DNA from: Streptosporangiaceae bacterium
Lineage (GTDB): Bacteria; Actinomycetota; Actinomycetes; Streptosporangiales; Streptosporangiaceae
DNA length: 54,725 bases
NCBI GenBank assembly: GCA_030045175.1
Contig: JASIBM010000468.1
Coordinates: 1-54,725, forward strand
Reading direction: 5' to 3'
Part shown: positions 3,382 through 24,320 of the stretch, in pieces
Position numbering within the stretch: the first letter of the stretch is position 1
Layout of the letters: the number at the start of each line of letters is the position of its first letter
Position numbers and translations under genes: made by a program
Notes under the pieces: model-generated
Told to the model about the DNA's origin: nothing
The model's input: only the letters and a program-made list of their open reading frames with translations
Database searches by the model: none

Positions 3382-4344
3382 TCATGAGTACAGCGCGAGC
3401 GCGGCGGCGGCGGCCGCCCTGACCTGCTCGGCGAGCTCCGGCGGCGCGATCACCTTGCCGTCCTCGCCGAGCCGCAGCGCCAGCCGCCTGACCCACCGGG
3501 TATCAGGGGTGCGCAGCGTCACCCGCAGCCGCCCGTCGGCGAGCTCGCTGACCCGCTCGCACGGGTAGTACTCGGCGACCCAGCGGCCCGCCTCGGCGAG
3601 CTCGAGATCCACCCGCACGTCCCCTGCCGACGGCTGGAACAGGCCAGAGTCCACGTCGACGTGCTCGGCCTCGTCAGGCACCTGCGCGGCCACGTCAAGC
3701 AACGTCAGCGCCAGCACGCGGTCGAGCCGGAACAGCCGGACCGCCTCGGCCCGCCGGCACCACGCCTCCAGGTAGGCCCGGCCCTCCACGACGACCAGCC
3801 GCATCGGGTCCACGTCGCGCTCGGTCGCCTCGTCGCGACCTGGCACGTAGTACGACAGGTGCAGCCGCCGGCGCCGCCGCAGCGCGTCGGCGACCTGAGC
3901 CTGCACATCGGCGGGCGCGCGGCCGTCCTGGTGGACGGCGACCTGCGCGCTCGCCATCCCCGCGTCGCCGGCCGCGGCCTCGAGCTTGGCGATCGTCGTG
4001 CGCAGCGCCGAGCGGTCTTGCGGCCCGGGCAGCTCCGCGAGCATCCGCAGCGCCACGAGCAGCGCGCTCGCCTCATCGGTGCCGAGCCGCAGCGGCCTGC
4101 CAATCGACTCGGCCTGGCTGACCGTGATCTCGCCGCCCTCGTACGACAGGTCGATTGGGCAGTACGGGTCAGGCGAGCGCAGCTCGACGCACCACAGCAG
4201 GTTCAGGTCGTCGACGAGCTCGGTCTCGCTGACCCCGAACGCGGCGGCCGTCTCTGCCAGGCCCACCGCCTGCCGGCTGATCACGTAGGGCACCAGCGCG
4301 AGCAGGCGCTGCAGCCGGTCGCTCGCCCCAGGCCGGCCCGTCAT
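3382..4344 (-). CDS. pafC: PafC, WYL-domain transcriptional regulator
   Basis: 320 aa with an HTH-like N-terminus (LQRLLALVPYV...AAAFGVSETELVDDLNLL). It has a 4-nt ATGA overlap with the upstream pafB and sits in the pafBC-tatAC-helY synteny. Confidence 0.85.
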   Translation of the reverse strand: MTGRPGASDRLQRLLALVPYVISRQAVGLAETAAAFGVSETELVDDLNLLWCVELRSPDPYCPIDLSYEGGEITVSQAESIGRPLRLGTDEASALLVALRMLAELPGPQDRSALRTTIAKLEAAAGDAGMASAQVAVHQDGRAPADVQAQVADALRRRRRLHLSYYVPGRDEATERDVDPMRLVVVEGRAYLEAWCRRAEAVRLFRLDRVLALTLLDVAAQVPDEAEHVDVDSGLFQPSAGDVRVDLELAEAGRWVAEYYPCERVSELADGRLRVTLRTPDTRWVRRLALRLGEDGKVIAPPELAEQVRAAAAAALALYS

Positions 4345-11210: not shown

Positions 11211-12461
11211 ATGATTGAGCTTGAGCAGAAGCTGCGCGCCGCGATGCACGCGGCCGTCGGTGACGAGCAACCACCTCGCGACCTGACCGCGCGGGTGCTC
11301 AGGCGGCACCGCCGCCGCACCGCGGTGGTCGCATCGCTGAGCGTGGCGGCGAGCGCCGCCGTAGTCATCGCGGTGCTGCTCGCTGCCCTGCCCTCGCGCG
11401 GCGGCGCGCCGGTCGGCCCCCGCTCCGGCCCGTCCCCGCAGGGGCTGGGCCACCCCACCTCGAAGCTGCGCGGTGCCGCCATGCCGCCAGGCAGCGACGT
11501 GCGCCTGCTGGTGGACGGCCCTTCCCAGACAGGGTGGTACTCCACCGCGACGCGCCAGATCGTGCAGATCGCTGGCCTGCCTCCGACGTCGATCGGCTAC
11601 GGCATCAGGCGCATCGACGGAGGTTATATCGCCCGCGCAGCCATCGCCGGGTCCGCCTGCTGCGACCAGAGGCCGGTCTACTACGTGGCCGACGGCGCGA
11701 AGACCGCCACCGGCGTCGGCCTCGCGGCCGCCGCGGCGCCGGCCAGCGTCGCCGGCGCCGTCTGGCTGACCTACCATCCGCGCCACGGTCCGTCCCGTGC
11801 GCAGCTGACCGGCCTCGACGGCCGGCCAATCGGCGCGCCGGTGACGCTGCCCGCCGGCAAGTCCGCTGTCATGGCCGGAGTCGGCAGCTACCTGCTACTC
11901 TCCCCGCTGGGCGATCTCGTCCCTGGGACGCGGGAAAGGCTCTGGGATCCTGCGTCCCGGCGGGTGATCCGCACCTTCGGGCAGGTCGACGCCATCGGCC
12001 CGGAGCAGATCGCGTGGGGCGGGGCCTGCGTCGGCTGCCCGGTGCACGTGCTCGACGTGCGGACGGGCGCCACCTTCAGCATCGCCATCCCGCGCGGGTC
12101 ACGGGTGTTCGTCGACGGCACGCTCGGCTCTGATGAGTGGTTCAGCTCTGACGGAACGCTGCTCGCCGTCAAGCTGACCCACGGCGCCTACCGGCACATG
12201 CTCGCCGGTTCCGAGCAGCTCGCCGTGATCGACCTCGCGACCAGGCGCCTGGTCATGCTGCCCGGCGTGGACATCGGCTCGGGGACCTCCATGTTCCTCG
12301 GCTTCGGCTGGCAGCCGGGTACCCACCGGCTCGTGGTGATACTGCGCCCCCTTAACCCGCACGCCGCGACCCAGGTCGGGTACTGGCAGCCGGGAGCGGC
12401 CCGGCTACGGATAACCACGGCCCGCCTGCCGCCCAGGGTGTGGGCGATACTCGTTCAGTAA
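11211..12461 (+). CDS. Single-pass membrane protein, putative anti-sigma/partner of the ECF sigma
   Basis: It starts 1 nt after the sigma gene stop. There is a short cytoplasmic N-terminus, one TM (VVASLSVAASAAVVIAVLLAAL) and a ~350-aa extracytoplasmic domain. The function is inferred from position only. Confidence 0.5.
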   Translation: MIELEQKLRAAMHAAVGDEQPPRDLTARVLRRHRRRTAVVASLSVAASAAVVIAVLLAALPSRGGAPVGPRSGPSPQGLGHPTSKLRGAAMPPGSDVRLLVDGPSQTGWYSTATRQIVQIAGLPPTSIGYGIRRIDGGYIARAAIAGSACCDQRPVYYVADGAKTATGVGLAAAAAPASVAGAVWLTYHPRHGPSRAQLTGLDGRPIGAPVTLPAGKSAVMAGVGSYLLLSPLGDLVPGTRERLWDPASRRVIRTFGQVDAIGPEQIAWGGACVGCPVHVLDVRTGATFSIAIPRGSRVFVDGTLGSDEWFSSDGTLLAVKLTHGAYRHMLAGSEQLAVIDLATRRLVMLPGVDIGSGTSMFLGFGWQPGTHRLVVILRPLNPHAATQVGYWQPGAARLRITTARLPPRVWAILVQ

Positions 12462-12487
12462 CGCCGCGAGCACCGGCCGCCGGTCCG

Positions 12488-13846
12488 CTACATTCCCGCG
12501 ATCAGCTTCTCGACCCGCTCGTCCACCGAGCGGAACGGGTCCTTGCACAGCACGGTGCGCTGCGCCTGGTCGTTCAGCTTCAGGTGCACCCAGTCGACCG
12601 TGAAGTCGCGGCGCCGTTCCTGCGCGCGCCTGATGAAGTCACCGCGCAGCCGGGCCCTGGTGGTCTGCGGCGGCACCGACTTGGCCTCGAAGATCGCCAG
12701 GTCGCGGCAGACCCGCTCGACGGCGCCGCGCTTTTGCAGCAGGTAGTACAGGCCGCGGCCGCGGTGCACGTCGTGGTAAGCGAGGTCGAGCTGAGCGACC
12801 CGGGGCGAGGAAAGCGGCAGGTCATGCTTGGCCCGGTAGCGCTCGATGAGCTGGTACTTGGTCACCCAGTCGATCTCACGGGAGACCAGGTCGAAGTCGC
12901 CGGTCTCGACCGCCCCGACGGCGCGTTCCCACAGCTCGAGCACCCGGCCCGTGACCGCGTCGCGGCCCCGCGCGTCGATGAAGGCGCGCGCCTTGGCCAG
13001 GTACTCCTGCTGGATCTCAAGCGCGCTCATCTCCCGCCCGCTGGCCAGCCTGATCTTTCTCCGGCCCGTCATGTCGTGGCTGACGTCCCTGATCGCCCTG
13101 ATCGGGTTCTCCAGGGTGAGGTCGCGCATCACGGTGCCGGCCTCGACCATCCGCAGCACCAGGTCGGTCGCGCCGACCTTGAGCAGCATGGTGGTCTCGC
13201 TCATGTTCGAGTCGCCGACGATGACGTGCAGCCGCCTGAACCGCTCCGCGTCCGCGTGCGGCTCGTCGCGCGTGTTGATGATGGGCCTGGACCTGGTCGT
13301 GGCCGACGAGACGCCCTCCCAGATGTGCTCGGCGCGCTGGCTCACGCAGTAGACCGCGCCGCGCGGGGTCTGCAGCACCTTGCCGGCGCCGCAGATGATC
13401 TGCCTGGTGACCAGGAACGGTATCAAGATGTCGGCCAGCCTGCCGAACTCGCCGTGCCTGGCGACGAGGTAGTTCTCGTGGCAGCCGTACGAGTTCCCTG
13501 CCGAGTCCGTGTTGTTCTTGAACAGGTAGATGTCCCCCGCGATGCCTTCTTCCCGCAGCCTGCGGTCGGCGTCGACGAGCAGCCCCTCAAGGATCCGCTC
13601 GCCGGCCTTGTCGTGGGTGACCAGGTCGGTCAGGCTGTCGCACTCGGGGGTGGCGTACTCGGGGTGGCTTCCGACATCGAGGTACAGGCGCGCGCCGTTG
13701 CGCAGGAACACGTTGCTGCTCCGGCCCCAGGACACCACGCGGCGGAACAAGTACCTGGCCACCTCGTCCGGGGACAGCCGTCGCTGCCCGCGGAACGTGC
13801 ACGTGACGCCGTACTCGTTCTCCAGCCCGAAGATTCGCCTGTCCAC
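12488..13846 (-). CDS. pafA: Pup--protein ligase PafA
   Basis: GTG start at 13844-13846 gives [16 protein letters not shown]...HPEYATPEC...NSYGCHENY, 452 aa. The 686-aa track ORF reads through into the upstream gene in the same frame. Confidence 0.92.
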
Positions 13847-13851
13847 GGTCG

Positions 13852-15282
13852 CTACCAGTCCACGGCGATGTACTTGGCCTCGGTGAACTCGAGCAGCCCC
13901 TGGTGACCGCCTTCCCTGCCCAGGCCGGACTGCTTGACCCCGCCAAACGGCGCGGCCGGGTCGCTGACCACTCCGCGGTTGATGCCGACCATGCCTGCCT
14001 CGAGCGCCTCGGCCACGGCGAGCGCGCGGCGCAGGTCGGCGGTGTACAGGTAGGACACCAGGCCGTACTCGGTGTGGTTGGCCATCGCGATCGCCTCGTC
14101 GGTGCCGGTGAACCTGACGATGGGCGCGACCGGGCCGAAGATCTCCACGCCCAGGATGCCAGCCGTCGGCGGCACGTGGTCGATCACGGTCGGCGTGTAG
14201 AAGTAGCCGCGCCGGTCCGGCGCCTGACCGCCGGTGACCACCCGGCCGCCGTCCCTGGTGGCCGCCTCGACCAGGGTGGCCACCTTGGTCCTGGTGTCGG
14301 CGTTGACGAGCGGGCCGAGGTCGGTGCCGTCGTCCAGGCCAGGCCCGACGTGGAGCGCGGCCAGCCTGGCCGCGAACTTCGCCGTGAACTCGTCGGCGAC
14401 GGCCTCGTGCACGAAGAACCTGTTGGCGGCCGTGCACGCCTCGCCACCGTTGCGCATCTTGGCGATCATCGCACCGTCCACGGCCGAGTCCACGTCGGCG
14501 TCGGCGAATACCAGGAACGGGGCATTGCCGCCAAGCTCCATCGAGCACTTGGTGACCGTGTCGGCGGCCGTGTGCAGCAGCTGCCTGCCCACCTCGGTCG
14601 AGCCGGTGAAGGAGAGCTTGCGCACCCGCGGGTCAGCCAGCATGGCCCCGACGACCGGCCCGGGCGCGGCCGTCGGCAGCACGTTGACCACCCCGTCGGG
14701 CACCCCGGCCTCAGCCAGGATGGCGGCGACGGCGAGCGCGGAAAGCGGAGTCTCCTTGGCGGGCTTCAGCACCACGGTGCAGCCGGCCGCGAGCGCCGGC
14801 CCGATCTTGCGGGTGGCCATCGCGGCCGGGAAGTTCCACGGCGTCACGAGCACGCTGACGCCCACCGGCTGGTACTGCACCAGGATCCGGTTGGCCCCCG
14901 ACGGCGCGGTCGTGACCGTGCCATCGATCCGCACCGCCTCCTCGGCGTACCAGCGGAAGAACTCAGCGGCGTAGGTGACCTCGGCACGGGCGTCTCGCAG
15001 CGCCTTGCCGTTCTCCAGCACCATCAGCCTGGCCAGCGCCTCGGTGTCGGCGATCATGAGCTCGTAAGCCCGGCGCAGGCACTCGCCGCGCGTGCGGGGC
15101 GCGGTCGCTGCCCAGCCGGGCAGGGCCCGGTGGGCGGCGTCTACCGCGTCGATCGCGTCAGCGGCGGTCGCCGCGGCGACCTCGGTGATCGGATCCTCTG
15201 TCGCCGGGTCGATGACCGGCAGGGAGCCGGCCCGCCCGGCCGACCACTGACCTCCGATCAGCAGCTCGGTCGGCGCGCTCAT
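13852..15282 (-). CDS. gabD: NAD(P)+-dependent succinate-semialdehyde dehydrogenase (aldehyde dehydrogenase family)
   Basis: [40 protein letters not shown] closely matches the GabD core. ELGGNAP and the catalytic Cys region (GEACTAANR) are present. Start chosen at [13 protein letters not shown] (CAT 15280-15282). Confidence 0.75.
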
Positions 15283-15430
15283 GCCGGTGATGCTCGCCAG
15301 GTCAACAGCCACGATCTCCTCCGATGTCAAGACGTAAGCTGAGGCTATCAACGGCGCACTCATACCCTGGCAGAGCCGCCGTCAACTGAGCCGCCGTAAA
15401 CCTGAGCCGCCGGCCCCGGTCAGGCGGACT

Positions 15431-15506: not shown

Positions 15507-16361
15507 TCAGCTCGCTGGCGCGTCGTCACCGCCGTCCGCAGGCTCCTGGCCGGCTGGCTCGCCGGCGGGCGGCTGGCTGGCCTGCGCCGCCTCCGTTCCC
15601 GCCGTCTTCTTGGCCTTGCCTGCGCCACCCGGCTGGCTCACGCCCTGCTGCCGCGTCCCGGCCGGAACCGCCTCGGTGAGCAGGGTCTCCAGGCGGCTGC
15701 CCGTCAGCCGGCGGAACGTCCTGTGCACCTTGCTGCGATCGAGCACGGCCACCTCAAGCTGGCTGGCCTGGATCTCGATCCGGTCCCCGTTGGCCTGCGC
15801 CGCGAGGCCCGCGATGGCGGCGGCCAGCGCCCGCGACAGCGTGGCGCCCTCTGCGTACTGGTCCTTGAGCACCGTGGTGATCTTCTCGGCCTGGCCGCCC
15901 ATCGCGACGTAGCCGTGCTCGTCGTTGACCGATCCGTCGAAGGTGATCCGGTAGATCTGGTCCTCGGCCAGAACCTCGGCCACCTCGGCGACAACGATCT
16001 CGACTTCGAACGGCTTGGGGCTGTCGGTGAAGATCGTGCCGAGCGTCTGGGCGTACCAGTTGGCCAGCCCGCGCGCCGTCACGTCCTGGCGGTCGTACTG
16101 GAAGCCAGTCATGTCCGCGTACCTGACGCCTGCCTTGCGCAAGATCTCGTACTCGTTGTACCTGCCCACGGCGGCGAAGGCGATCCTGTCGTAGATCTCG
16201 CTGATCTTGTGCAGCGCTCGCGAGGGGTTAGGCGCGACGAACAGTATCCCGGCGTCGTACTGGATCACGACCCCGCTGCGGCCCCGCGCGATGCCCTTGC
16301 GCGCGTAGTCCGCCTTATCCTTCATCGCCTGTTCAGGCGACACGTAGAACGGCATCGTCAC
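15507..16361 (-). CDS. prcA: Proteasome alpha subunit
   Basis: MTMPFYVSPEQAMKDKADYARKGIARGRS is the canonical PrcA N-terminus. 284 aa with an acidic/Pro-rich tail. Confidence 0.93.
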   Translation of the reverse strand: MTMPFYVSPEQAMKDKADYARKGIARGRSGVVIQYDAGILFVAPNPSRALHKISEIYDRIAFAAVGRYNEYEILRKAGVRYADMTGFQYDRQDVTARGLANWYAQTLGTIFTDSPKPFEVEIVVAEVAEVLAEDQIYRITFDGSVNDEHGYVAMGGQAEKITTVLKDQYAEGATLSRALAAAIAGLAAQANGDRIEIQASQLEVAVLDRSKVHRTFRRLTGSRLETLLTEAVPAGTRQQGVSQPGGAGKAKKTAGTEAAQASQPPAGEPAGQEPADGGDDAPAS

Positions 16362-16441: not shown

Positions 16442-17335
16442 TTACTCCGTCAATGCCTGGCGCAGCGCCGAGCTCGGGCCGTCCGGCAGGCTCATCCTGC
16501 CCGACAGCACCGACTGGGCGTACGAGCCTGCCTCCTCATCGGTCAGCCGGTGATAGCCGTCGGCAGTCACGGTGACGACGACCGGGTAGATCCGCCTGGT
16601 CATGTCGGGCCCCCCGGTCGCTGAGTCGTCGTCGGCCGCGTCGTAGAGCGCCTGCATGCAGGCCAGGATCGCGTCAGAGGGCCCCATCTGGTCGACGTAC
16701 AGCTTCTTCAGCGACCCGCGGGCGAATACCGAGCCCGAGCCAATCGAGTGGAACCTGTGCTCTTCGTAACGGCCGCCAGCGACGTCGTAGCTGAAGATCC
16801 GGCCCACACCCTCGTCAGTGTCATAACCAGCGAAGATCGGCACCACCACCAGCCCTTGCATGGCACCGCCCAGGTTCGCGCGGACGATCCCGGCCAGCCG
16901 GTTGGCCTTACCTTCCAGTGACAGTTCCCTGCCCTCAAGCTTCTCGTAGTGCTCGAGCTCAACCTGGAAGAGCCGCACAAGCTCGATGCCGATGCCAGCC
17001 ACCCCGGCGATCCCGATGCAGGAGTACTCGTCGCTGCGGAACACCTTTTCGATGTCCCGCTGGGAAATCATGTTCCCGGCGGTCGCCCGGCGGTCGCCCG
17101 CCATCACGACGCCGCCGTTGAACGCGGCGGCCACGATCGTGGTCCCGTGCGGCAGGCCGGCGACGATGCCGGCCGCCACCTCGACGCCGCCGCCGCCAGG
17201 GAGCAGCTCCGGCGCGATCGTGGTAAGGAAATCAGCGAACGAAGACGTCCCCGCGGTCATGAACGGGGCGGTCATCAACCGGGCGGCAGGGTCATAACCC
17301 AAGGCGGTCCCTTCCTCGTGCGCACCATACGCCAC
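16442..17335 (-). CDS. prcB: Proteasome beta subunit (with propeptide)
   Basis: A propeptide is followed by the [26 protein letters not shown] Thr-1 active-site context. Confidence 0.93.
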
Positions 17336-17383
17336 CGACCTTACTGCGATGGCGCCGTCTGCGGCAGATCATCGGCGTGGCCG

Positions 17384-17593
17384 TCACTGCCCGCCCTTCT
17401 GCACATATGACCGGACGAATTCCTCGGCGTTCTCCTCGAGCACCTCATCGATTTCGTCGAGGATCGCGTCCACGTCGTCGGCTAGCTTCTCCCGGCGCTC
17501 CTCACCTTCCTTGGTGCTCTGGTCCTGCTCGTCCTGCTCGTCCTGACCCCGCCGGGTGGTATGCCGCTGTCCCCCGGTGTCCTTCGTCGCCAT
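17384..17593 (-). CDS. pup: Prokaryotic ubiquitin-like protein Pup
   Basis: 69 aa, acidic and disordered. It ends DEIDEVLEENAEEFVRSYVQKGGQ (a GGQ terminus that requires Dop deamidation). Confidence 0.95.
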   Translation of the reverse strand: MATKDTGGQRHTTRRGQDEQDEQDQSTKEGEERREKLADDVDAILDEIDEVLEENAEEFVRSYVQKGGQ

Positions 17594-17780
17594 CCGAACC
17601 TCCGCTTCGTCGGCGTCCGCCTACTTAAACCTATCCTGGCCACCGCGCAGACAAGCTAATCACGGCGTTCGGACACCGTGGCCGGCGTCAGCGCCGGCCC
17701 GACGGCGATTCCTGGCCGAGCCAGCCCGCCGGGGCGCCGCGCCCATGCCACCCGCCACTTGCTGTGGTGTCAGGTGCCAG

Positions 17781-17826
17781 GACTGGGTATTTTCTGGGTA
17801 TCAGACTGGGCATTTTGTGGGCATCG
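17781..17826. promoter_or_regulatory. Imperfect 23-nt tandem direct repeat (gactgggtattttctgggtatca / gactgggcattttgtgggcatcg), candidate operator
   Basis: 19/23 identity. AT-rich T-tract cores in otherwise GC-rich DNA. It lies about 50 nt upstream of the GTG at 17876, in the pup-divergent intergenic region. Confidence 0.4.
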
Positions 17827-17875
17827 GCGCTCTATCAGGACGCGACGGCTCTGGAGCGACCGGAAGGAGGCACCT

Positions 17876-18793
17876 GTGGAACGACCACCTTCCCCACCCG
17901 CAGGGCAGGAGCTTATCGCCGTGCTGCGTGCGCTACTTCGGGCCGGTCTGCCACCAGCCGATAACCACGCACTCGACGGGCTGCTTGCCTTGCGGGGCGT
18001 GACGGCCCGCGCCGTCAGCCCTTCCGACCGCTTCAGTCGCCTGCGCGCCCTAGACGGCTTGCTGCGCTGGCAGCTGGCGCGGTTCGAGCATCCACGGCTG
18101 GCCGAGCCAGCCCGGCTGCTGTTCGGCGCCGCGCCCGGAGCGTCTGGGTTGAAGCTGACCGAGCGGCGGGCCAGAGCCGCCGTCGCGGCCGGCTACGACG
18201 CGCACCACTTCCGCAAGTGGATCGAGCCGCAGATTTGCCGCCGCCTGGCCGCCATGCTCGCGGCCGACGATGCTGAGGCTGTAGTTCGCGCGGTGCCGCC
18301 ACATCTATCGCGGCCCCACCACCCACTGCGCCTGCCAGCCGATGTATTTGCGTGGGAGGCAGCCGAGCACGAGCAGGCCATCACGGCTCTGTGGGCCGAG
18401 GTCTACGCGCTGCGCGCTGCGCTGCTGGCGGTCGCCCGCGTCGCCTGCATGCACGGCGCCATGCACCCTGAGACCGGAGCAGCCACCGAGACGGCGCTGT
18501 GGCGTGCGGCACAGCTACACCACGCCGTGCTTGAGTACCAAGATGCCTACGGGCCGCAACTACTCGGCGCCGACCCAGGCGTCGGCCCAGAGGATCTAGC
18601 CGCAGTAGCCGGCTGGCATCCAGCGCTTGACCCTCTGATCCAGCGCGAGCTGGCCGCGATGGCGGCTGTGCACCCGACCTCTGGCGACTTCCATCGTGCC
18701 CTTCCAGTTCCCGCCGCCGAGGCGGCCCAGCGCTGGCGGCAGGAACTGGCCGAACAGTCCACCACCGAACTTAGGCAGGAGCCATGGACCTGA
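17876..18793 (+). CDS. Hypothetical Ala/Leu/Arg-rich, probably all-alpha protein (305 aa)
   Basis: A strong SD, GGAAGGAGG, lies 5 nt before the GTG at 17876. The stop overlaps the next gene start (ATGGACCTGA). I recognise no family. Confidence 0.55.
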   Translation: MERPPSPPAGQELIAVLRALLRAGLPPADNHALDGLLALRGVTARAVSPSDRFSRLRALDGLLRWQLARFEHPRLAEPARLLFGAAPGASGLKLTERRARAAVAAGYDAHHFRKWIEPQICRRLAAMLAADDAEAVVRAVPPHLSRPHHPLRLPADVFAWEAAEHEQAITALWAEVYALRAALLAVARVACMHGAMHPETGAATETALWRAAQLHHAVLEYQDAYGPQLLGADPGVGPEDLAAVAGWHPALDPLIQRELAAMAAVHPTSGDFHRALPVPAAEAAQRWRQELAEQSTTELRQEPWT

Positions 18794-19356
18794 CCAGGCT
18801 GATCGACCCGCTCGGTTCCCCACGCCGCTACGTGATCACTGGCGGGCCATCCGCTGGCAAGGAAGCCGTGCTCGACGAACTGACCGCCCGCCACATCCCG
18901 GTCACCGAAGGCGAGCCGGCTCGCGAGATCTACCGCAAGCACCGCCAGCGCCTCGGCCGCCACCTGCAGGTCGGCGACCGACGCGAATACTCACGTGAGG
19001 TACTTGAAGTTTTCATCGCCGAATACACCACGCACAAGCACGGCCTGCGCTTCTACAACCGCGGCATCCCCGACGGATACGGCTGGGATGCCTTCTTTGG
19101 CCTAGGTCCCTACCCGGAACTGGAGGCGGCCAGCCGGGCATACCGGTACGAGGCGGTGTTCGTCCTTGACCCGCTCGACGACTTCGAGAGCGAAGACGAC
19201 CTCGTGTTCGCCAAGGACCGAGAAATCCGCCGCGTGCACGAGCTGATCGTGCAGGGCTACTACGACGCCGGATACAGCCCGATCTTCATTCCCGCAGACG
19301 AGCCGGCCCGCCGGGTTGATCAGATCCTCGCCAACATCCCCGCCCCTGCCGAATGA
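18784..19356 (+). CDS. P-loop NTPase/kinase-like protein (AAA_28 / NadR-C-terminal-like)
   Basis: 190 aa. Walker A is ITGGPSAGKEAV (18841-18864). A Walker-B-like hydrophobic strand plus acidic run is present (AVFVLDPLDDFESEDD). Its small size is typical of the AAA_28 family. Confidence 0.6.
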   Translation: MDLTRLIDPLGSPRRYVITGGPSAGKEAVLDELTARHIPVTEGEPAREIYRKHRQRLGRHLQVGDRREYSREVLEVFIAEYTTHKHGLRFYNRGIPDGYGWDAFFGLGPYPELEAASRAYRYEAVFVLDPLDDFESEDDLVFAKDREIRRVHELIVQGYYDAGYSPIFIPADEPARRVDQILANIPAPAE

Positions 19357-19380
19357 CGAGCGACGGGAGAGATAGCCGCC

Positions 19381-20823
19381 GTGCCCACCGAGAATGCCTT
19401 CGACCTCATCAGTCCGAACACCGTCCTAGCCAACGCGATGCTGCGCACCGTAGACATGGTCCGTCCCCGGATCGAAGCCACCCACCCTGACCGCGTCGCC
19501 CTGTGCGTTGGCGCTCAGATCAACGGCGCACCGCACCTGGGCACCGCCTTAGTCCAGACCGCCGCATTCCTGCTCGCCAAGGCCGTCAAGCGCACCTTCA
19601 ACGTCGACGCCATCGTCCGATTCGGCGCCCTGGACAACGCCCCATACGACATCCGGCTCGATCCGGAGACTCACCACGCCTACCAGCAGACCTACTTCCA
19701 CGCTCTGGGCGCAGCGAAGATCGGGGAACTGATCGAGACCTACTACCGCGCGTTCTTTGACTCGCTTGCGGACGCCACCGGCGTGGACTACGAGACCGAG
19801 ACCTACACCGCCCAGCAGGCCGACCCCATCTTCCGGCACGAGTTCCTGGCCACCCTTGGTCACTTCAACTCGATCCGCTGGCCCCTGGCCCCTTCCCACG
19901 GGCAGGTTCACCTGCGCTTCCCTTGCCCGCAGTGCGGCTGGGCGGAGAAGCGTGCTGAACGCACCCGCCTAGCCGTAGTCGGGTCCGGCGGCGCCGAGTT
20001 CAGCGCGGTCTGCACAGACCACGGTGACTACAAAGTCGCTATCACTCCCGACTCGACCGCCTACCTCGATCTAGCCACCCTCTACCGCAACCTGGTAAAG
20101 GAGCGCGTCGCCGCCCGCGACCACATCACGCTCTGCGTCATGATCAAGGGCGGGGACTGGGCGTTCGGCTGCCAACTAATCGACGAGGCCTTCGCCCACC
20201 TCCCAGGATCTCCGGCCCCGCCGCGCGTGTTTACCCCCATGGTCCTCACCGATACGGGCGCCAAGCTGTCAAAGTCCCTGATCCGCGAAGGGAAGGTGGC
20301 CCCGCCGCCGGGCGCGAAGCCGTGGATGCTCGACACCACGATGTGGGAAGGCACCATCGACTCCCTCGTCGACGCGATGGTTTGGCTGGTCGGTCGCATG
20401 ATGTCCGACCCGAAGCACTTCTACCGCTCCTACACCACCCAAGAACTGGACCGCCTGATGACGACCCGCCCCAGATCGGCCCCGACCATCCGCGCCCGCG
20501 AGATGAACTTGTACCGCCGCTATTTTGACCTAGTCGCCGAAGGCCGCAAGACCATCGAAGTTCGAGTGCGATACCCGAACCTGCGCACCCTCGCCCCAGG
20601 CGACCACATCCGCTTCGTCTGCGGTCGCGACGAATGTCTCACTCGCGTCACACGCGTGGCCGTCTACAACTCCTTCGAGCAGATGATCGACACCGAGGGA
20701 CCAGCCAACGTCAACCCTGACTCGCCACGCGACCAGCAGCTTGCCAGCATCCGCCGGATCTACGGACCGGAGAAGGAAGCCCTCGGCGTCCTCGCCATCG
20801 AGATCGAGCGCGCTGGAAGCTGA
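19381..20823 (+). CDS. Class I aminoacyl-tRNA-synthetase-like catalytic core (HxGx + KxSKS + Zn-knuckle) fused to a C-terminal ASCH domain
   Basis: NGAPHLGT (HIGH-type) is at 19534-19545. CPQCGW...CTDH starts at 19924. GAKLSKS (KMSKS-type) is at 20263-20277. The C-terminal ~105 aa reads YFDLVAEGRKTIEVRVRYPNLRTLAPGDHIRFVCG...YNSFEQM, matching the ASCH/PUA-like pattern. GTG start with GGGAGAG upstream. Confidence 0.6.
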   Translation: MPTENAFDLISPNTVLANAMLRTVDMVRPRIEATHPDRVALCVGAQINGAPHLGTALVQTAAFLLAKAVKRTFNVDAIVRFGALDNAPYDIRLDPETHHAYQQTYFHALGAAKIGELIETYYRAFFDSLADATGVDYETETYTAQQADPIFRHEFLATLGHFNSIRWPLAPSHGQVHLRFPCPQCGWAEKRAERTRLAVVGSGGAEFSAVCTDHGDYKVAITPDSTAYLDLATLYRNLVKERVAARDHITLCVMIKGGDWAFGCQLIDEAFAHLPGSPAPPRVFTPMVLTDTGAKLSKSLIREGKVAPPPGAKPWMLDTTMWEGTIDSLVDAMVWLVGRMMSDPKHFYRSYTTQELDRLMTTRPRSAPTIRAREMNLYRRYFDLVAEGRKTIEVRVRYPNLRTLAPGDHIRFVCGRDECLTRVTRVAVYNSFEQMIDTEGPANVNPDSPRDQQLASIRRIYGPEKEALGVLAIEIERAGS

Positions 20824-20900
20824 GATGGCCTCCAGGGCATAGGTCAGCGATAAGCGCCGCGGTCGTGCCGCCCGGCGCGCCCCTGTGCGCGGTTCTGAGG

Positions 20901-22415
20901 CTATTTACCGGTCAGCGCGGTCACGAGCTCAGCCGCCGTCTGGCAGCGGTCCAGGAGGGCGCCTACGTGCGCCCTGGTGCCGCGCAGCGGCTCGAGCGTG
21001 GGGACCCGTTGCAGCGACTCACGGCCCGGGATGTCGAAGATGACCGAGTCCCAGGACGCGGCGGCGACCGAGTCCGGGTACTGGCGCAGGCACCGGCCAC
21101 GGAAGTAGGCCCTGGTGTCCTCGGGCGGCTCGGTCATGGCCCGCTGCACGTCGGCCTCATCGAGCAGCCGCCCGACCCGCCCGGACGCGGCCAGCCTGTT
21201 GTACAGGCCGCGATCGGACCGCACGTCGGAGTATTGCAAGTCGACGAGCTGCAGCCGCGGGTGACTCCAGCCGATCCCGTCCCTGGTGCGGTAGCCGTCG
21301 ATGAGCTGGAGCTTGGTCACCCAGTCAAGCTCGCCTGCCAGCCGCATCGGATCGTCGGCCAGCCTGGTGAGCGCGGACTCCCACTTGTCGAGCACGTCGC
21401 AGGTGAGCTCGTCCACGTCAGAGCCGAACCTGTCCTGGGTGTACTTGCGTGCCAGCTCCAGGTACTCCATCTGGACCTGCACCGCCGTGAGCTTCCTGCC
21501 GCTGCGCAGCGGGATCAGGTGCCTGCAAGACGGGTCATGCGAGATCGCGCGGAGCTCGGCCACCGGGCCCTCGATGGACAGGTCCGCCCCGAGGAAGCGA
21601 TCTTCGATCATCGAGAGCACGAGCGAGGTGGTGCCCAGCTTGAGGTAGGTGGACAGCTCGCTCATGTTCGCGTCACCGATGATCACGTGCAGCCTGCGGT
21701 ACTTCTCCGGGTCCGCGTGCGGCTCGTCCCTGGTGTTGATGATCGGCCGCTTGAGCGTGGTCTCCAGGCCGACCTCGACCTCGAAGAAGTCGGCGCGCTG
21801 GCTGATCTGGAATCCTTCCTCCCTGCCATCGGCGCCCCGGCCGATCCGGCCGGCCCCGCACACCACCTGCCTGGTGACGAAGAACGGGGTGAGGTTCCTG
21901 ACGATCTCCGCGAACGGGGTCGACCGGCTCATCAGGTAATTCTCGTGGCAGCCGTAGGAGGCGCCCTTATTGTCGGTGTTGTTCTTGTACAGCTGGATCG
22001 GCGCGGTCCCTGGCAAGGCGCTCGCCTGCGCGGCGGCCTCCTCCATCACCCGCTCCCCCGCCTTGTCCCACAGCACGGCGGAGAGCGGATCGGTACATTC
22101 CGGCGAGGAGTATTCAGGGTGCGCGTGATCAACATAAAGCCGGGCGCCATTGGTCAAGATAACATTTGCCAGCCCGAGGTCCTCGTCCGTGAGCTGGCTC
22201 GCGTCCGCGGTGTCCCTGGACAAGTCGAACCCGCGTGCGTCGCGCAGCGGGTTCTCCTCCTCGAAATCCCAGCGCGTCCTGCGCGCCCTCGCTGCGGTCG
22301 CCGCGTGGTAGGCGTTGACGACCTGAGACGACGTCACCATCGCGTTAGCGCCGGGCTGGCCGGGCACGGAAATGCCGTACTCGGTCTCGATGCCCATCAC
22401 GCGGCGGACGCTCAT
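20901..22415 (-). CDS. dop: Pup deamidase/depupylase Dop
   Basis: [19 protein letters not shown]...HPEYSSPEC...ASYGCHENY, with a Dop-specific insertion. 504 aa. Confidence 0.92.
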
Positions 22416-22502
22416 GACTGCAAGACTAATGCTGCCCGGCAGGCGCCCTTGCGGCCGAGCGCGGCTCTAGCGGCCAGCGTCTCGTCGCGTATCGGATATG
22501 TG

Positions 22503-24320
22503 TCACAGGTACTGGCCGGTGTTCGCCACGGTGTCGATCGAGCGGCCGGCCTCGTTGCCGCTCTTGCCAGAGACCAGCGTCCTGATGTATACGATCCGCT
22601 CGCCCTTCTTGCCGGAGATCCTGGCCCAGTCGTCCGGGTTCGTGGTGTTGGGCAGATCCTCGTTCTCGCTGAACTCGTCGACGCAGGCCGACAGCAGGTG
22701 CGCCACGCGCAGCCCCTTCTGGCCGGTCTCGAGGAACTCCTTGATCGCCATCTTCTTCGCCCGGTCCACGATGTTCTGGATCATCGCGCCCGAGTTGAAG
22801 TCCTTGAAGTACAGCACCTCCTTGTCCCCGTTGGCGTAGGTCACCTCGAGGAACCTGTTCTCCTGGGTCTCGCTGTACATGCGCTCGACGACCCGCTGGA
22901 TCATCTCGGCGACGGTCGCCGTTGCCGAGCCGCCGTGCTCGGCGACGTCATCTGGGTGCAGCGGCAGCTCCGCCACCACGTACTTGGAGAAGATGTCCCT
23001 GGCCGCCTCGGCATCCGGCCGCTCGATCTTGATCTTCACGTCGAGCCTGCCCGGGCGCAAGATGGCCGGGTCGATCATGTCCTCGCGGTTGGACGCGCCG
23101 ATCACGATGACGTTCTCCAGGCCCTCGACGCCGTCGATCTCGCTCAGGAGCTGCGGGACGATGGTGTTCTCGACATCGCTGGACACGCCAGAGCCCCTGG
23201 TGCGGAAGATCGAGTCCATCTCGTCGAAGAACACGATCACCGGCATGCCCTCGCTGGCCTTCTCCCTGGCCCGCTGGAAGACCAGCCTGATGTGCCGCTC
23301 GGTCTCGCCGACGTACTTGTTCAGCAGCTCAGGGCCCTTGATGTTGAGGAAGAAGCTCTTGCCCTCCTTGGCCGCCTCGCCGCCGGCACCGTCGGCCTGG
23401 ATGGCGAGCTGCGCGGTCCGCCTGGCCACCTGCTTGGCCAGCGAGTTGGCCACCGCCTTGGCGATCAGCGTCTTGCCGCAGCCGGGCGGCCCGTAGAGCA
23501 GCACGCCCTTCGGCGGCCGCAGCTTGTGCTCCTTGAACAGGTCGGCGTGCAGGTAGGGCAGCTCGATCGCGTCCCTGATCTGCTCGATCTGCGACGCCAG
23601 CCCGCCGATCAGGTCATAGGTGATGTCCGGGACCTCTTCGAGTATCAGCTCCTCGACCTCGGCCTTGGGTATCCGCTCGTACACGTAGCCCGATCGGGGC
23701 TCGAGCAGGAGCGAGTCGCCGGCCCGCAACGTGCCCGCGAGCAGCGGCTCGGCCAGCCTGACGATCCGCTCCTCGTCGGCGTGCGAGATCACCAGTGCCC
23801 GGTCGCCGCCCTCGAGCAGCTCCTTGAGCATCACGACCTCGCCGACGGTCTCGTAGCCGAGCGCGATCACCACGTTGAGCGCCTCGTTCAGCACGAGCTC
23901 CTGGCCCGGCCGCAGGTGGGCGACGTCGACGGCCGGGCTCACCGAGACCCGCATCTTCCTGCCGCCGGTGAACACGTCGGCGGTGCCGTCGGCGTTGGCC
24001 TGCAAGAACACGCCGAAGCCTGACGGCGGCTGAGCCAGCCTGTCGACCTCTTCCTTGAGCGCGATGATCTGGTCCCTGGCCTCGCGCAAGGTCGCGGCTA
24101 GCCGTTCGTTCTGGCCGGTAACAGTGGCGAGGGAGGCCTCGGCCTGGGTCAGCCGCTCCTCGATCAGCCTGGACGCGCGCGGCGACTCCGCTAGCTTGCC
24201 GCGAAGCGCCGCCACCTCCTCCTCAAGGAAGGAGATCTGGTCCGTCAGGACCTTGACCCTGACCTCGTCATCATGGCGTCCGGCGCGAGCGCTGTCGTCA
24301 CGAGAGGCCATGCCTCTCAC
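22503..24320 (-). CDS. arc: Proteasome-associated AAA ATPase ARC/Mpa
   Basis: Coiled-coil N-terminus, Walker A GPPGCGKT, and a C-terminal ...NTGQYL proteasome-docking tail. The start may be Met4 (24311). Confidence 0.93.

Follow-up and report, generated by a model that had tools for sequence, protein, structure and literature searches.

The window analysed here, a stretch of 54,725 nucleotides from a Streptosporangiaceae bacterium, contains a Pup-proteasome locus in which dop and pup are split by three genes of the opposite strand. In the canonical actinobacterial locus the order is arc/mpa, dop, pup, prcB, and prcA, with pafA further on (PMC8223512). The window resembles this locus in that all six genes are intact and in the canonical order and orientation, the minus-strand order being arc/mpa, dop, pup, prcB, prcA, an aldehyde dehydrogenase (ALDH) gene, and pafA. 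It differs in the interval between dop and pup, which is 156-176 bp in the closest relatives and 3,307 bp here (17594-20900), where it holds the foreign plus-strand genes g1, g2, and g3. It is probable that these form a mobile, self-contained three-gene operon that landed between dop and pup by chance. The features of the locus, in order of position, are as follows.

15507-16361, minus strand: prcA.
16442-17335, minus strand: prcB.
17384-17593, minus strand: pup, 69 aa (Pfam Pup, 7e-27, and TIGR03687), the left flank of the insertion.
17594-17700, minus strand: ancestral pup-proximal spacer, with the probable pup promoter and leader; it aligns with the spacers of relatives L087, L089, L214, and L081.
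17701-17783: decayed pup-side end of the inserted element, from the alignment of the window with contig L081, with a boundary good to about 15 bp.
17784-17824, plus strand: four direct TGGG[CT]AT repeats with 11-12 nt spacing, the putative operator/promoter region of the cassette, recognised by recurrence of the motif upstream of g1.
17862-17870, plus strand: Shine-Dalgarno sequence of g1, GGAAGGAGG, 5′ of the GTG and read from the sequence.
17876-18793, plus strand: g1, about 305 aa, all-alpha in its AlphaFold2 model and without a family match, a candidate regulator.
18784-19356, plus strand: g2, 190 aa, an AAA_28 P-loop NTPase/kinase-like protein (Pfam AAA_28, 6e-22).
19381-20823, plus strand: g3, whole gene.
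19381-20490, plus strand: N-terminal domain of g3 (residues 1-370), by Foldseek and motifs a truncated class I aminoacyl-tRNA synthetase (aaRS) catalytic domain.
20503-20808, plus strand: C-terminal ASCH domain of g3 (residues 375-476; Pfam ASCH, 1.5e-9).
20836-20883: remnant of the dop-side terminal inverted repeat, aligning with both L081 arms, with a conserved core at 20853-20883 and the outer end CCCC at 20880-20883.
20884-20900, minus strand: ancestral spacer directly after the dop stop codon, common to L081.
20901-22415, minus strand: dop, 504 aa (TIGR03688, 764 bits, and Pfam Pup_ligase), the right flank of the insertion.
22503-24320, minus strand: arc/mpa.

An earlier note, made from the sequence alone, had described dop and pup as split by about 3.3 kb with three opposite-strand genes, a strong Shine-Dalgarno sequence before the g1 GTG at 17876, a start of g2 that overlaps the g1 stop, and an aaRS-like/ASCH fusion as the third gene. 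The coordinates and gene identities are confirmed, as is GGAAGGAGG at its position; the ATG of g2 lies over the TGA of g1 (ATGGACCTGA), and the fusion is borne out by the Pfam ASCH match and by a class I aaRS fold in AlphaFold2 and Foldseek. The overlap of g1 and g2 suggests that the two may be translationally coupled. The start of g1 is uncertain by about 15 codons, the public gene call being 290 aa (P0121) but the alignments to homologues starting at residue 1-4 of the 305-aa form.

The closest Dop proteins are from soil metagenomes and metagenome-assembled genomes (MAGs) labelled Streptosporangiaceae bacterium. In L087-L090, where Dop is 89-91 % identical, the order is arc, dop, a spacer of 156-162 bp, pup, prcB, and prcA, with ALDH and pafA later; these loci are free of the cassette, and in L089 no prcA gene is called. 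Their outer flanks match the window, with an M50 peptidase gene and then arc and dop. A TrmI-family methyltransferase is present at the flank in L089, the window, and the P0205 contig, and an unannotated 414-aa gene is there in L087 and L088. At 95 % Dop identity, P0204 has dop, 176 bp, and then pup, and P0205, which is from the same sample and also has a 95 % identical Dop, has an opposite-strand gene 94 bp after dop, like the window, as judged from gene calls only. In close relatives dop is followed directly by pup, and the possibility that the arrangement of the window is universal in the family and simply unannotated is rejected on the evidence of these empty sites.

The insertion is shared by L081, a 4.4-kb contig of about 89 % nucleotide identity that carries pup, g1-g2-g3, and the C-terminus of dop. 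There the insert is flanked by inverted repeats (286-333 and 4227-4274; 48 nt, 85 % complementary, or 70 nt at 84 % by BLAST), the outer ends of which are G-rich, GGGGG on the pup side and GGGCCC on the dop side. With the element taken out, the L081 spacer is 136 bp long, and an alignment to the empty sites in L087 and L089 (156-162 bp) is possible over its full length. The junction was placed at about GCGCACA^, which is approximate because only the pup-proximal 90-115 nt or so are well conserved and the dop-proximal half poorly. In the window the dop-side repeat is retained at about 20836-20883, with a core match at 20853-20874 that has 2 mismatches and is unique in the 54.7 kb. The pup-side repeat is mostly lost, and the core has no match there.

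Close relatives have short empty spacers and L081 shares the repeat-bracketed insert; the insertion is therefore recent, and it is polymorphic at the population level among relatives with 95 % identical Dop. The interval is best described as an eroded, decaying, non-autonomous mobile cassette bounded by inverted repeats, inserted in the dop-pup spacer, of about 160 bp, of a recent ancestor.

Three side observations concern this region. In L081, g3 and the dop-side repeat are separated by some 700 bp (3527-4226) that are absent from the window and contain a minus-strand open reading frame (ORF) of about 200 aa without a Pfam match; this extra segment may represent a fourth passenger gene that is dispensable, or may have been added later. 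In the window, a perfect 17-nt direct repeat (CTGGCCGAGCCAGCCCG) is present in the decayed pup-side end (17712-17728) and inside g1 (18098-18114), and may have been left by the rearrangement through which the inverted repeat on the pup side was lost. Among close relatives, the dop-proximal half of the dop-pup spacer is hypervariable and its sequence unrelated, with spacers of 156, 162, 176, or 416 bp (L214 2251-2666; L087/L089 8516-8677), and indels and insertions seem to be tolerated there.

The codon composition of the cassette is foreign. At third codon positions (GC3) the G+C content of its three genes is 0.75-0.85, compared with 0.90-0.94 in dop, arc, prcA, ALDH, and pafA, while overall G+C is barely different (0.63-0.66 in g2 and g3 against 0.67 in dop and arc). 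The lower G+C that had been reported for the third gene is thus not seen in its overall content, which is near that of the core genes, but is clear at third positions, and in all three genes. The first gene had been taken as host-like; on the contrary, g1 has the lowest GC3 of the cassette (0.75).

A scan of one genome per species gave 80 loci with a g3 relative; as these were retrieved via g3, all co-occurrence is conditional on g3. In 68 of the 80, g1, g2, and g3 are present in the same order and orientation. Such recurrence shows that the arrangement is not due to chance, and the alternative that the genes are three independent neighbours, which the earlier note had considered, is rejected. 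All-against-all clustering of ORFs across the loci found only g1, g2, and g3 to be shared, with differing flanks, and DNA similarity between cassettes is limited to the coding regions and about 100 bp upstream of g1. The hosts belong to the Catenulisporales, Streptosporangiales, Pseudonocardiales, Glycomycetales, and Kitasatosporales; a homologue in Actinoplanes is known from protein search only. In most loci of the Catenulisporales and Streptosporangiales g3 is 77-81 % identical, and in those of the Pseudonocardiales and Glycomyces 60-64 %. A Bacteroidota MAG (L054) has the g2 and g3 pair, adjoined by an integron-cassette protein.

Several of these cassettes are on recognisable mobile elements. 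Complete Tn3-family transposons carry it in L014 (102-nt repeats, resolvase, cassette, tnpA) and L079 (76-nt repeats), and it is plasmid-borne in Kutzneria pKutB-C1 and a Sphaerimonospora plasmid (L030, L077). In L082 it is part of an integrative element with Prim-Pol, DUF927, and HTH_17 (excisionase) genes. Some genomes have two copies (L014/L015, L053/L067), and close relatives of the cassette, with g1 79-85 % identical, are in differing sites, for example beside a SIR2_2 gene in L085. The temperate Streptomyces phages Mojorita and Picard have the ligase (gp28) and ASCH (gp29) as separate adjacent genes, without g1 or g2, between the lysis genes and the serine integrase. The g1-g2-g3 cassette is a co-inherited, horizontally mobile unit among actinomycetes.

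Two further observations were made on the surroundings of these loci. L083 (1-11443) has a lone g3, 86 % identical, upstream of which only the last 23 codons of g2 remain. The region is variable and the cassette in it truncated; a few kb from this g3 is a type I-C CRISPR-Cas operon (Cas3, Cas5d, Csd1, Cas7, Cas4, Cas1), with a condensation-domain gene between. In phage Mojorita (L086 3825-5852, gp25-gp27), a pair of genes for an XRE/DUF5753-type DNA-binding protein and a small, anti-sigma-like HATPase_c_2 protein is beside the cassette genes, and one or both flank about ten chromosomal loci (L004, L006, L012, L017, L020, L025, L035, L040, L059, L069, L072); this recurrence may reflect the general abundance of such pairs in actinomycetes.

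The insert in the window is similar to Tn3-family transposons and their non-autonomous derivatives in that the same cassette is a passenger of the complete transposons in L014 and L079, and in that long terminal inverted repeats, G-rich at their outer ends, enclose the L081 insert. It differs in having no transposase or resolvase in the window or L081, no visible 5-bp target duplication, and one decayed repeat in the window, and the L081 inverted repeat bears only a loose resemblance to the repeats of L014 and L079.

These differences weigh against the mechanism of insertion as described here, together with some related findings. Because a DDE Tn3 transposase and a resolvase are absent from the window and L081, the element is at best non-autonomous here. 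No target-site duplication was recognised; the L081 flanks CCGCC and TGTGC differ, at a site that is GC-rich and diverged. The L081-type inverted repeat was found nowhere else, including the close cassettes L082, L084, and L085, leaving the family of the element, Tn3-like or other, unproven, and in the window a single inverted repeat survives. A scan of metagenome contigs for the repeat core gave 120 matches, each to a pattern of only 21-26 nt and none with a cassette, which were treated as chance matches in GC-rich DNA.

The consequences for pup can be judged from the spacer. A stretch of 90-115 bp upstream of pup is conserved in the cassette-free relatives, in L214 (the 416-bp spacer of which is otherwise unrelated), in L081, and in the window; it contains TGGC[CG]AGGATAG[CG]TTTA[AG]G and a GGAGGT ribosome-binding site. 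In the window the conserved block is CTTAAACCTATCCTGGCCA at 17624-17642 of the plus strand, which is TGGCCAGGATAGGTTTAAG on the pup strand. This pup-proximal block has not changed from the ancestral state, so that pup probably had a promoter of its own before the insertion. Judged from the alignments, pup-prcBA keeps its ancestral proximal upstream region, and the upstream element is not newly recruited. The earlier note had proposed that pup-prcBA must now use a promoter in a shared divergent region, 17594-17875. A promoter within the proximal spacer is a reasonable prediction, as this sequence is conserved whether or not the cassette is present. The element is ancestral, however, and instead of a single shared region there are two juxtaposed control regions, the ancestral spacer at about 17594-17700 and the putative cassette operator/promoter at 17784-17824. 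Scans of 17300-21100 for consensus sigma-70 promoters and intrinsic terminators found none, which is uninformative for an actinobacterium of 69 % G+C. The conserved block was also considered as a RecA-NDp/PafBC-type promoter; this was dropped, the spacing and sequence being a misfit by eye.

The position of the cassette in the Pup-proteasome locus is accidental. In none of the 80 cassette loci is dop, pup, prcA, prcB, or arc found within 8 kb, and no functional link between the cassette and pupylation was found. The meaningful remodelling of the operon that had been implied is therefore not borne out; this is an incidental polymorphic insertion.

Nearly all loci with g1 have, upstream of it, two to four direct TGGG[CT]AT heptamers with 11-12 nt spacing; as background, the heptamer occurs 0.13 times per kb per strand. 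The typical form of the repeat is CTGGGCATTTTCTGGGCAT, followed by a CGGTGCTTCACT-like element, and the DNA around the repeats is not alignable between loci. The paired motif is present once in the 54.7-kb window, at 17784-17824, and is missing from the loci without g1, namely the phage, the Bacteroidota locus, and the Streptomyces clusters described below. The TGGGYAT repeats are putatively the operator/promoter of the cassette operon. The g1 protein is a candidate for the regulator that binds them, with a likelihood slightly short of even; the one basis for a DNA-binding role is the co-occurrence of g1 with the repeats.

The AlphaFold2 model of g1 is a confident all-helical structure (predicted local distance difference test score, pLDDT, 89.5). 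A fold search with this model gave no match in the PDB (best E 0.59) or BFVD, none being at E ≤0.001, and g1 has no family match in Pfam, NCBIfam, PADLOC, or PHROG; neither NCBIfam nor PADLOC gave a match for g2 or g3 either. When g1 and g2 were compared with the PDB, by sequence and by profile, only noise was returned. The 83 homologues of g1 are from actinomycetes and soil metagenomes, where the source is named.

The g2 protein matches the whole of the AAA_28 domain (6e-22; profile positions 1-159 of 164), which is the family of the NadR nucleoside kinase domain. Its Walker A motif, GGPSxGK, continues with E or D in place of the usual S or T in 21 aligned homologues, none of which has the canonical GxxxxGK[ST]; in the Bacteroidota copy (L054) the residue is V. 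It is likely that g2 binds nucleotide. The pairing of g2 with g3 is conserved into the Bacteroidota (L054).

The g3 protein was modelled with a pLDDT of 86.4 and a predicted TM-score (pTM) of 0.82. With residues 1-370, the best Foldseek match is class I lysyl-tRNA synthetase (LysRS; 1irx, 2e-9), followed by many glutamyl- and glutaminyl-tRNA synthetases (GluRS and GlnRS), and BshC. The motifs PHLGT (HIGH) and KLSKS (KMSKS) are invariant in 34 g3 homologues, as are the three cysteines of a CxxC...CxxH motif, the histidine of which is nearly so. There is no anticodon-binding domain, the synthetase-like part of about 370 aa being followed by ASCH. The N-terminal domain has no Pfam or NCBIfam match at E ≤0.1, and g3 does not match a full-length class I aaRS family model; P0340, a distant family member, has a sub-threshold match to tRNA-synt_1f, the Pfam model for class I LysRS (18.7 bits, cut-off 27). 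In PHROGs, g3 matches phrog_35625 'tRNA synthetase' (2.7e-116), and its ASCH part phrog_19935 'RNA-binding protein' (1.8e-30). A full HMMER search of 1.84 billion representative proteins identified 342 relatives of the ligase, most of them stand-alone proteins of about 360 aa. On its sequence, the g3 N-terminus is best described as belonging to a separate small family of class I synthetase-like ligases, with predicted catalytic motifs intact.

Other members of this family have different contexts. In three Streptomyces genomes (L064 636-10137, L065, L071), a homologue of the g3 ligase without ASCH, about 53 % identical, is in a conserved cluster with genes for a polysaccharide deacetylase, a major facilitator superfamily (MFS) transporter, a pyridoxal phosphate (PLP) enzyme, an AurF-like N-oxygenase, an ornithine carbamoyltransferase (OTCase)-like carbamoyltransferase, a methyltransferase, and a PhyH dioxygenase. 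This looks like an uncharacterised biosynthetic gene cluster that uses the g3 ligase family. Elsewhere the ligase is fused to a C-terminal S-adenosylmethionine (AdoMet) decarboxylase (P0441) or to an N-terminal GDSL-type acylhydrolase (P0440), a hint that some members carry out amine or ester chemistry on small molecules.

The ASCH domain of g3 matches PF04266 at 38.9 bits (cut-off 21.2; 1.5e-9). Sequence matches in the PDB are 2z0t and 1s04 (1e-11 to 7e-17), and by Foldseek the target-normalised TM-score to archaeal PH0355 (2z0t) is 0.89. The GxKxxExR ('GKER') octapeptide is invariant (G388, K390, E393, R395). In a 2026 preprint, 17 of 19 tested ASCH proteins hydrolysed free N4-acetylcytidine (ac4C) and all 19 deacetylated ac4C at position 34 (ac4C34) of bacterial tRNA in vitro, the Lys and Glu of the GKER octapeptide were essential for activity, and the synthetase-like acetate ligase TmcAL was noted as also making ac4C34 (bioRxiv 10.64898/2026.02.27.708502). 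The g3 domain has the same fold as the stand-alone GKER ASCH proteins (TthASCH 2DP9, PH0355 2z0t, PF0455 1s04) and YqfB, with 36-38 % identity and the four invariant octapeptide residues (Gly, Lys, Glu, and Arg). The stand-alone proteins hydrolyse ac4C, both free and in tRNA, whereas for the g3 domain this activity is predicted only. It also differs in being the C-terminal module of a ligase, and its role may be substrate capture or proofreading rather than simple erasure. The same pair occurs fused in g3 and split in the phages, and for this reason the ligase and ASCH probably work jointly.

Some truncated class I synthetase paralogues acylate targets other than the 3′ end of tRNA. GluQRS (YadB) glutamylates queuosine-34 of tRNA-Asp, TmcAL uses acetate and ATP to make ac4C34 of tRNA-Met, and MshC and BshC carry out ligation to small-molecule amines. 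Like these, g3 has a Rossmann-fold class I catalytic domain with HIGH and KMSKS motifs and no anticodon-binding domain, and both BshC and GluRS are among its fold matches. Unlike them, its N-terminal domain is without sequence-family membership in NCBIfam and Pfam, and its best fold match is class I LysRS, not GluRS or TmcAL. In contrast to these paralogues, g3 is fused to ASCH, is linked to AAA_28 and an orphan protein, and is mobile, not housekeeping. The chemistry of TmcAL would yield exactly the N4-acyl-cytidine that ASCH domains recognise.

No description of the three-gene system was found in the libraries or literature searched, which agrees with the earlier note. Literature searches covered ASCH/synthetase/AAA_28 systems, paralogues of class I LysRS within gene clusters, and the Streptomyces cluster, and the combination of ligase, ASCH, atypical AAA_28, and orphan-fold protein is not described there. 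Annotation of the cassette is limited to 'ASCH domain protein'.

A function can be proposed from these features. The class I synthetase-like domain of g3 would carry out ATP-dependent adenylation of a carboxylate, either an amino acid or a short acid, and would then pass the acyl group on to an amine bound by the ASCH domain to which it is fused, or work with hydrolysis by ASCH. The substrate would most likely be the N4 of cytidine, either in a tRNA anticodon loop, with chemistry of the TmcAL/GluQRS type, or in a free cytosine nucleoside or nucleotide. The g2 protein may phosphorylate or otherwise prime the substrate, or gate the enzyme, and g1 may regulate the operon through the TGGGYAT repeats. 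On this analysis the most likely activity of g3 is ATP-dependent ligation of an acyl or aminoacyl group to cytidine N4. Cytidine N4 is favoured because the best-characterised activity of ASCH is the recognition and hydrolysis of N4-acyl-cytidine; a cytidine-type substrate is estimated to have an even chance, tRNA and small molecule being roughly equal within it. The module is accessory, and its role is most likely one in conflict, defence, or resistance, which the pattern of mobility fits.

Some of the evidence on function counts against this proposal. The functions of all three proteins are predictions from sequences and models. There is no recognisable DNA-binding fold in g1, for which hhalign against the GerE helix-turn-helix gave a probability of 0.1. 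As g2 lacks the Ser/Thr of Walker A, it may be that it is no kinase. The ligase family is not intrinsically RNA-directed, because there are members without ASCH in a biosynthetic-looking cluster and fusions to AdoMet decarboxylase and GDSL proteins. For a role in defence, none of the three proteins has a match in PADLOC-DB 2.0 at E ≤1, and the 127 upstream neighbour ORFs, compared with Pfam and PADLOC, are mostly ordinary and heterogeneous, with few defence or mobile-element matches; the cassette is accordingly not termed a defence system here.

It is possible rather than probable that the cassette is, as the earlier note had suggested, a module for RNA or tRNA modification, repair, or conflict, the presence of which functionally uncouples pup-prcBA from dop and affects regulation of the Pup-proteasome. 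The truncated class I aaRS domain is like those of tRNA-acting paralogues such as GluQRS, and the CxxC...CxxH insertion is like the zinc site of the acceptor-binding domain of GluRS. The phage genes are annotated 'tRNA synthetase' and 'RNA-binding protein', and removal of tRNA ac4C was seen with all 19 ASCH proteins tested (bioRxiv 10.64898/2026.02.27.708502). Co-transcription of dop and pup is lost, as it is no longer possible with convergent genes between them, but the ancestral pup-proximal block means that pup probably had its own promoter, the cassette is near Pup-proteasome genes in none of the 80 other loci, and polymorphism among relatives at 95 % identity argues against adaptive rewiring. 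Members of the ligase family in small-molecule contexts also tell against RNA, the targeting of which is predicted only.

A small-molecule module is likewise a tentative alternative. In this case the substrate would be a free cytosine or cytidine nucleoside or nucleotide, and the module would spread by conferring resistance or fitness; it might inactivate or aminoacylate N4-acyl-cytosine nucleoside antibiotics, salvage modified cytidine, or produce a modified nucleotide. Carriage as cargo of Tn3 transposons and plasmids is typical of resistance genes. The ligase homologues without ASCH (about 53 % identical) are inside a conserved Streptomyces cluster that includes an MFS exporter, other members of the family are fused to AdoMet decarboxylase or a GDSL hydrolase, and small-molecule relatives of the aaRS fold, such as BshC, are among the fold matches. 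AAA_28 is, as noted, the family of a nucleoside kinase domain, that of NadR. EOLA1 is reported to function in ac4C salvage, and free N4-acyl-cytidine is hydrolysed by ASCH enzymes (YqfB; bioRxiv 10.64898/2026.02.27.708502). However, no transporter or pathway-completing enzymes are linked to the cassette, the phage carries the ligase and ASCH only, and no specific compound is implicated.

It is unlikely that the cassette is an anti-phage defence or superinfection-exclusion system, an explanation that overlaps with RNA targeting. It would agree with the patchy distribution and frequent carriage on mobile elements, the two copies in some genomes, and the position in temperate phages between the lysis genes and integrase. 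Among the neighbours are type I-C CRISPR-Cas, SIR2_2, and a few SspH, AriA, or Gabija-like ORFs, and an integron-cassette protein adjoins the Bacteroidota locus. Yet PADLOC matches are lacking even at E ≤1, the 127 upstream neighbours are for the most part ordinary genes of metabolism or regulation, and there is no nuclease, membrane protein, or other obvious effector.

A further reading, that the cassette is a mobile autoregulated system that recodes or disables tRNA, is quite improbable. ASCH would capture C34 or ac4C34 of a specific tRNA, stripping the acetyl if needed, the LysRS-like domain would put an aminoacyl or other acyl group on N4, which would be a base modification not yet described, and the AAA_28 protein would be a priming kinase or switch. 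If this were true, mobile elements and temperate phages would alter decoding, or protect or poison tRNAs, in conflict between phage and host or between microbes.

That the cassette is a lineage-specific accessory of the Pup-proteasome, for example modifying Pup, its substrates, or their synthesis, agrees with physical location only and is extremely improbable; it is rejected for want of co-occurrence in the 80 other loci, and the site is empty in the closest relatives, the cassette is opposite in orientation with its own putative control region, and its codon composition is foreign.

Elsewhere in the locus, the ALDH gene (13852-15363) directly precedes pafA in the window and in relatives. Between prcA and ALDH, L087 (10966-14130) has genes for a GntR protein and a 416-aa protein, and L089 (10957-14247) for a 371-aa protein and a SET-domain protein, with none in the window; this interval is a second variable spot of the locus. 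Long plus-strand ORFs at 20865-24023 (1,052 aa) and 12440-13906 (488 aa) are antisense to dop/arc and pafA. They were rejected as genes, being the usual shadow ORFs of high-G+C DNA. In an Rfam scan there was no credible family (best 20.7 bits, cut-off 71), and no tRNA genes were found in the window.

For the Pup-proteasome the point made by this locus is a modest one, that linkage of dop and pup is not obligatory and that pup seems to have a conserved upstream element of its own. Natural strains that have or lack the cassette are a ready-made test of the importance of co-transcription with dop. The larger value is in the cassette, which is compact, highly conserved, and spread on transposons, plasmids, and phages. 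It joins a small family of class I synthetase-like ligases to a domain family linked to N4-acyl-cytidine chemistry, and adds an atypical P-loop protein, a confidently folded protein without a known structural relative, and a defined putative operator. Its study may lead to a cycle of tRNA or cytidine modification and erasure, or to a mobile mechanism of resistance or defence in antibiotic-producing actinomycetes.

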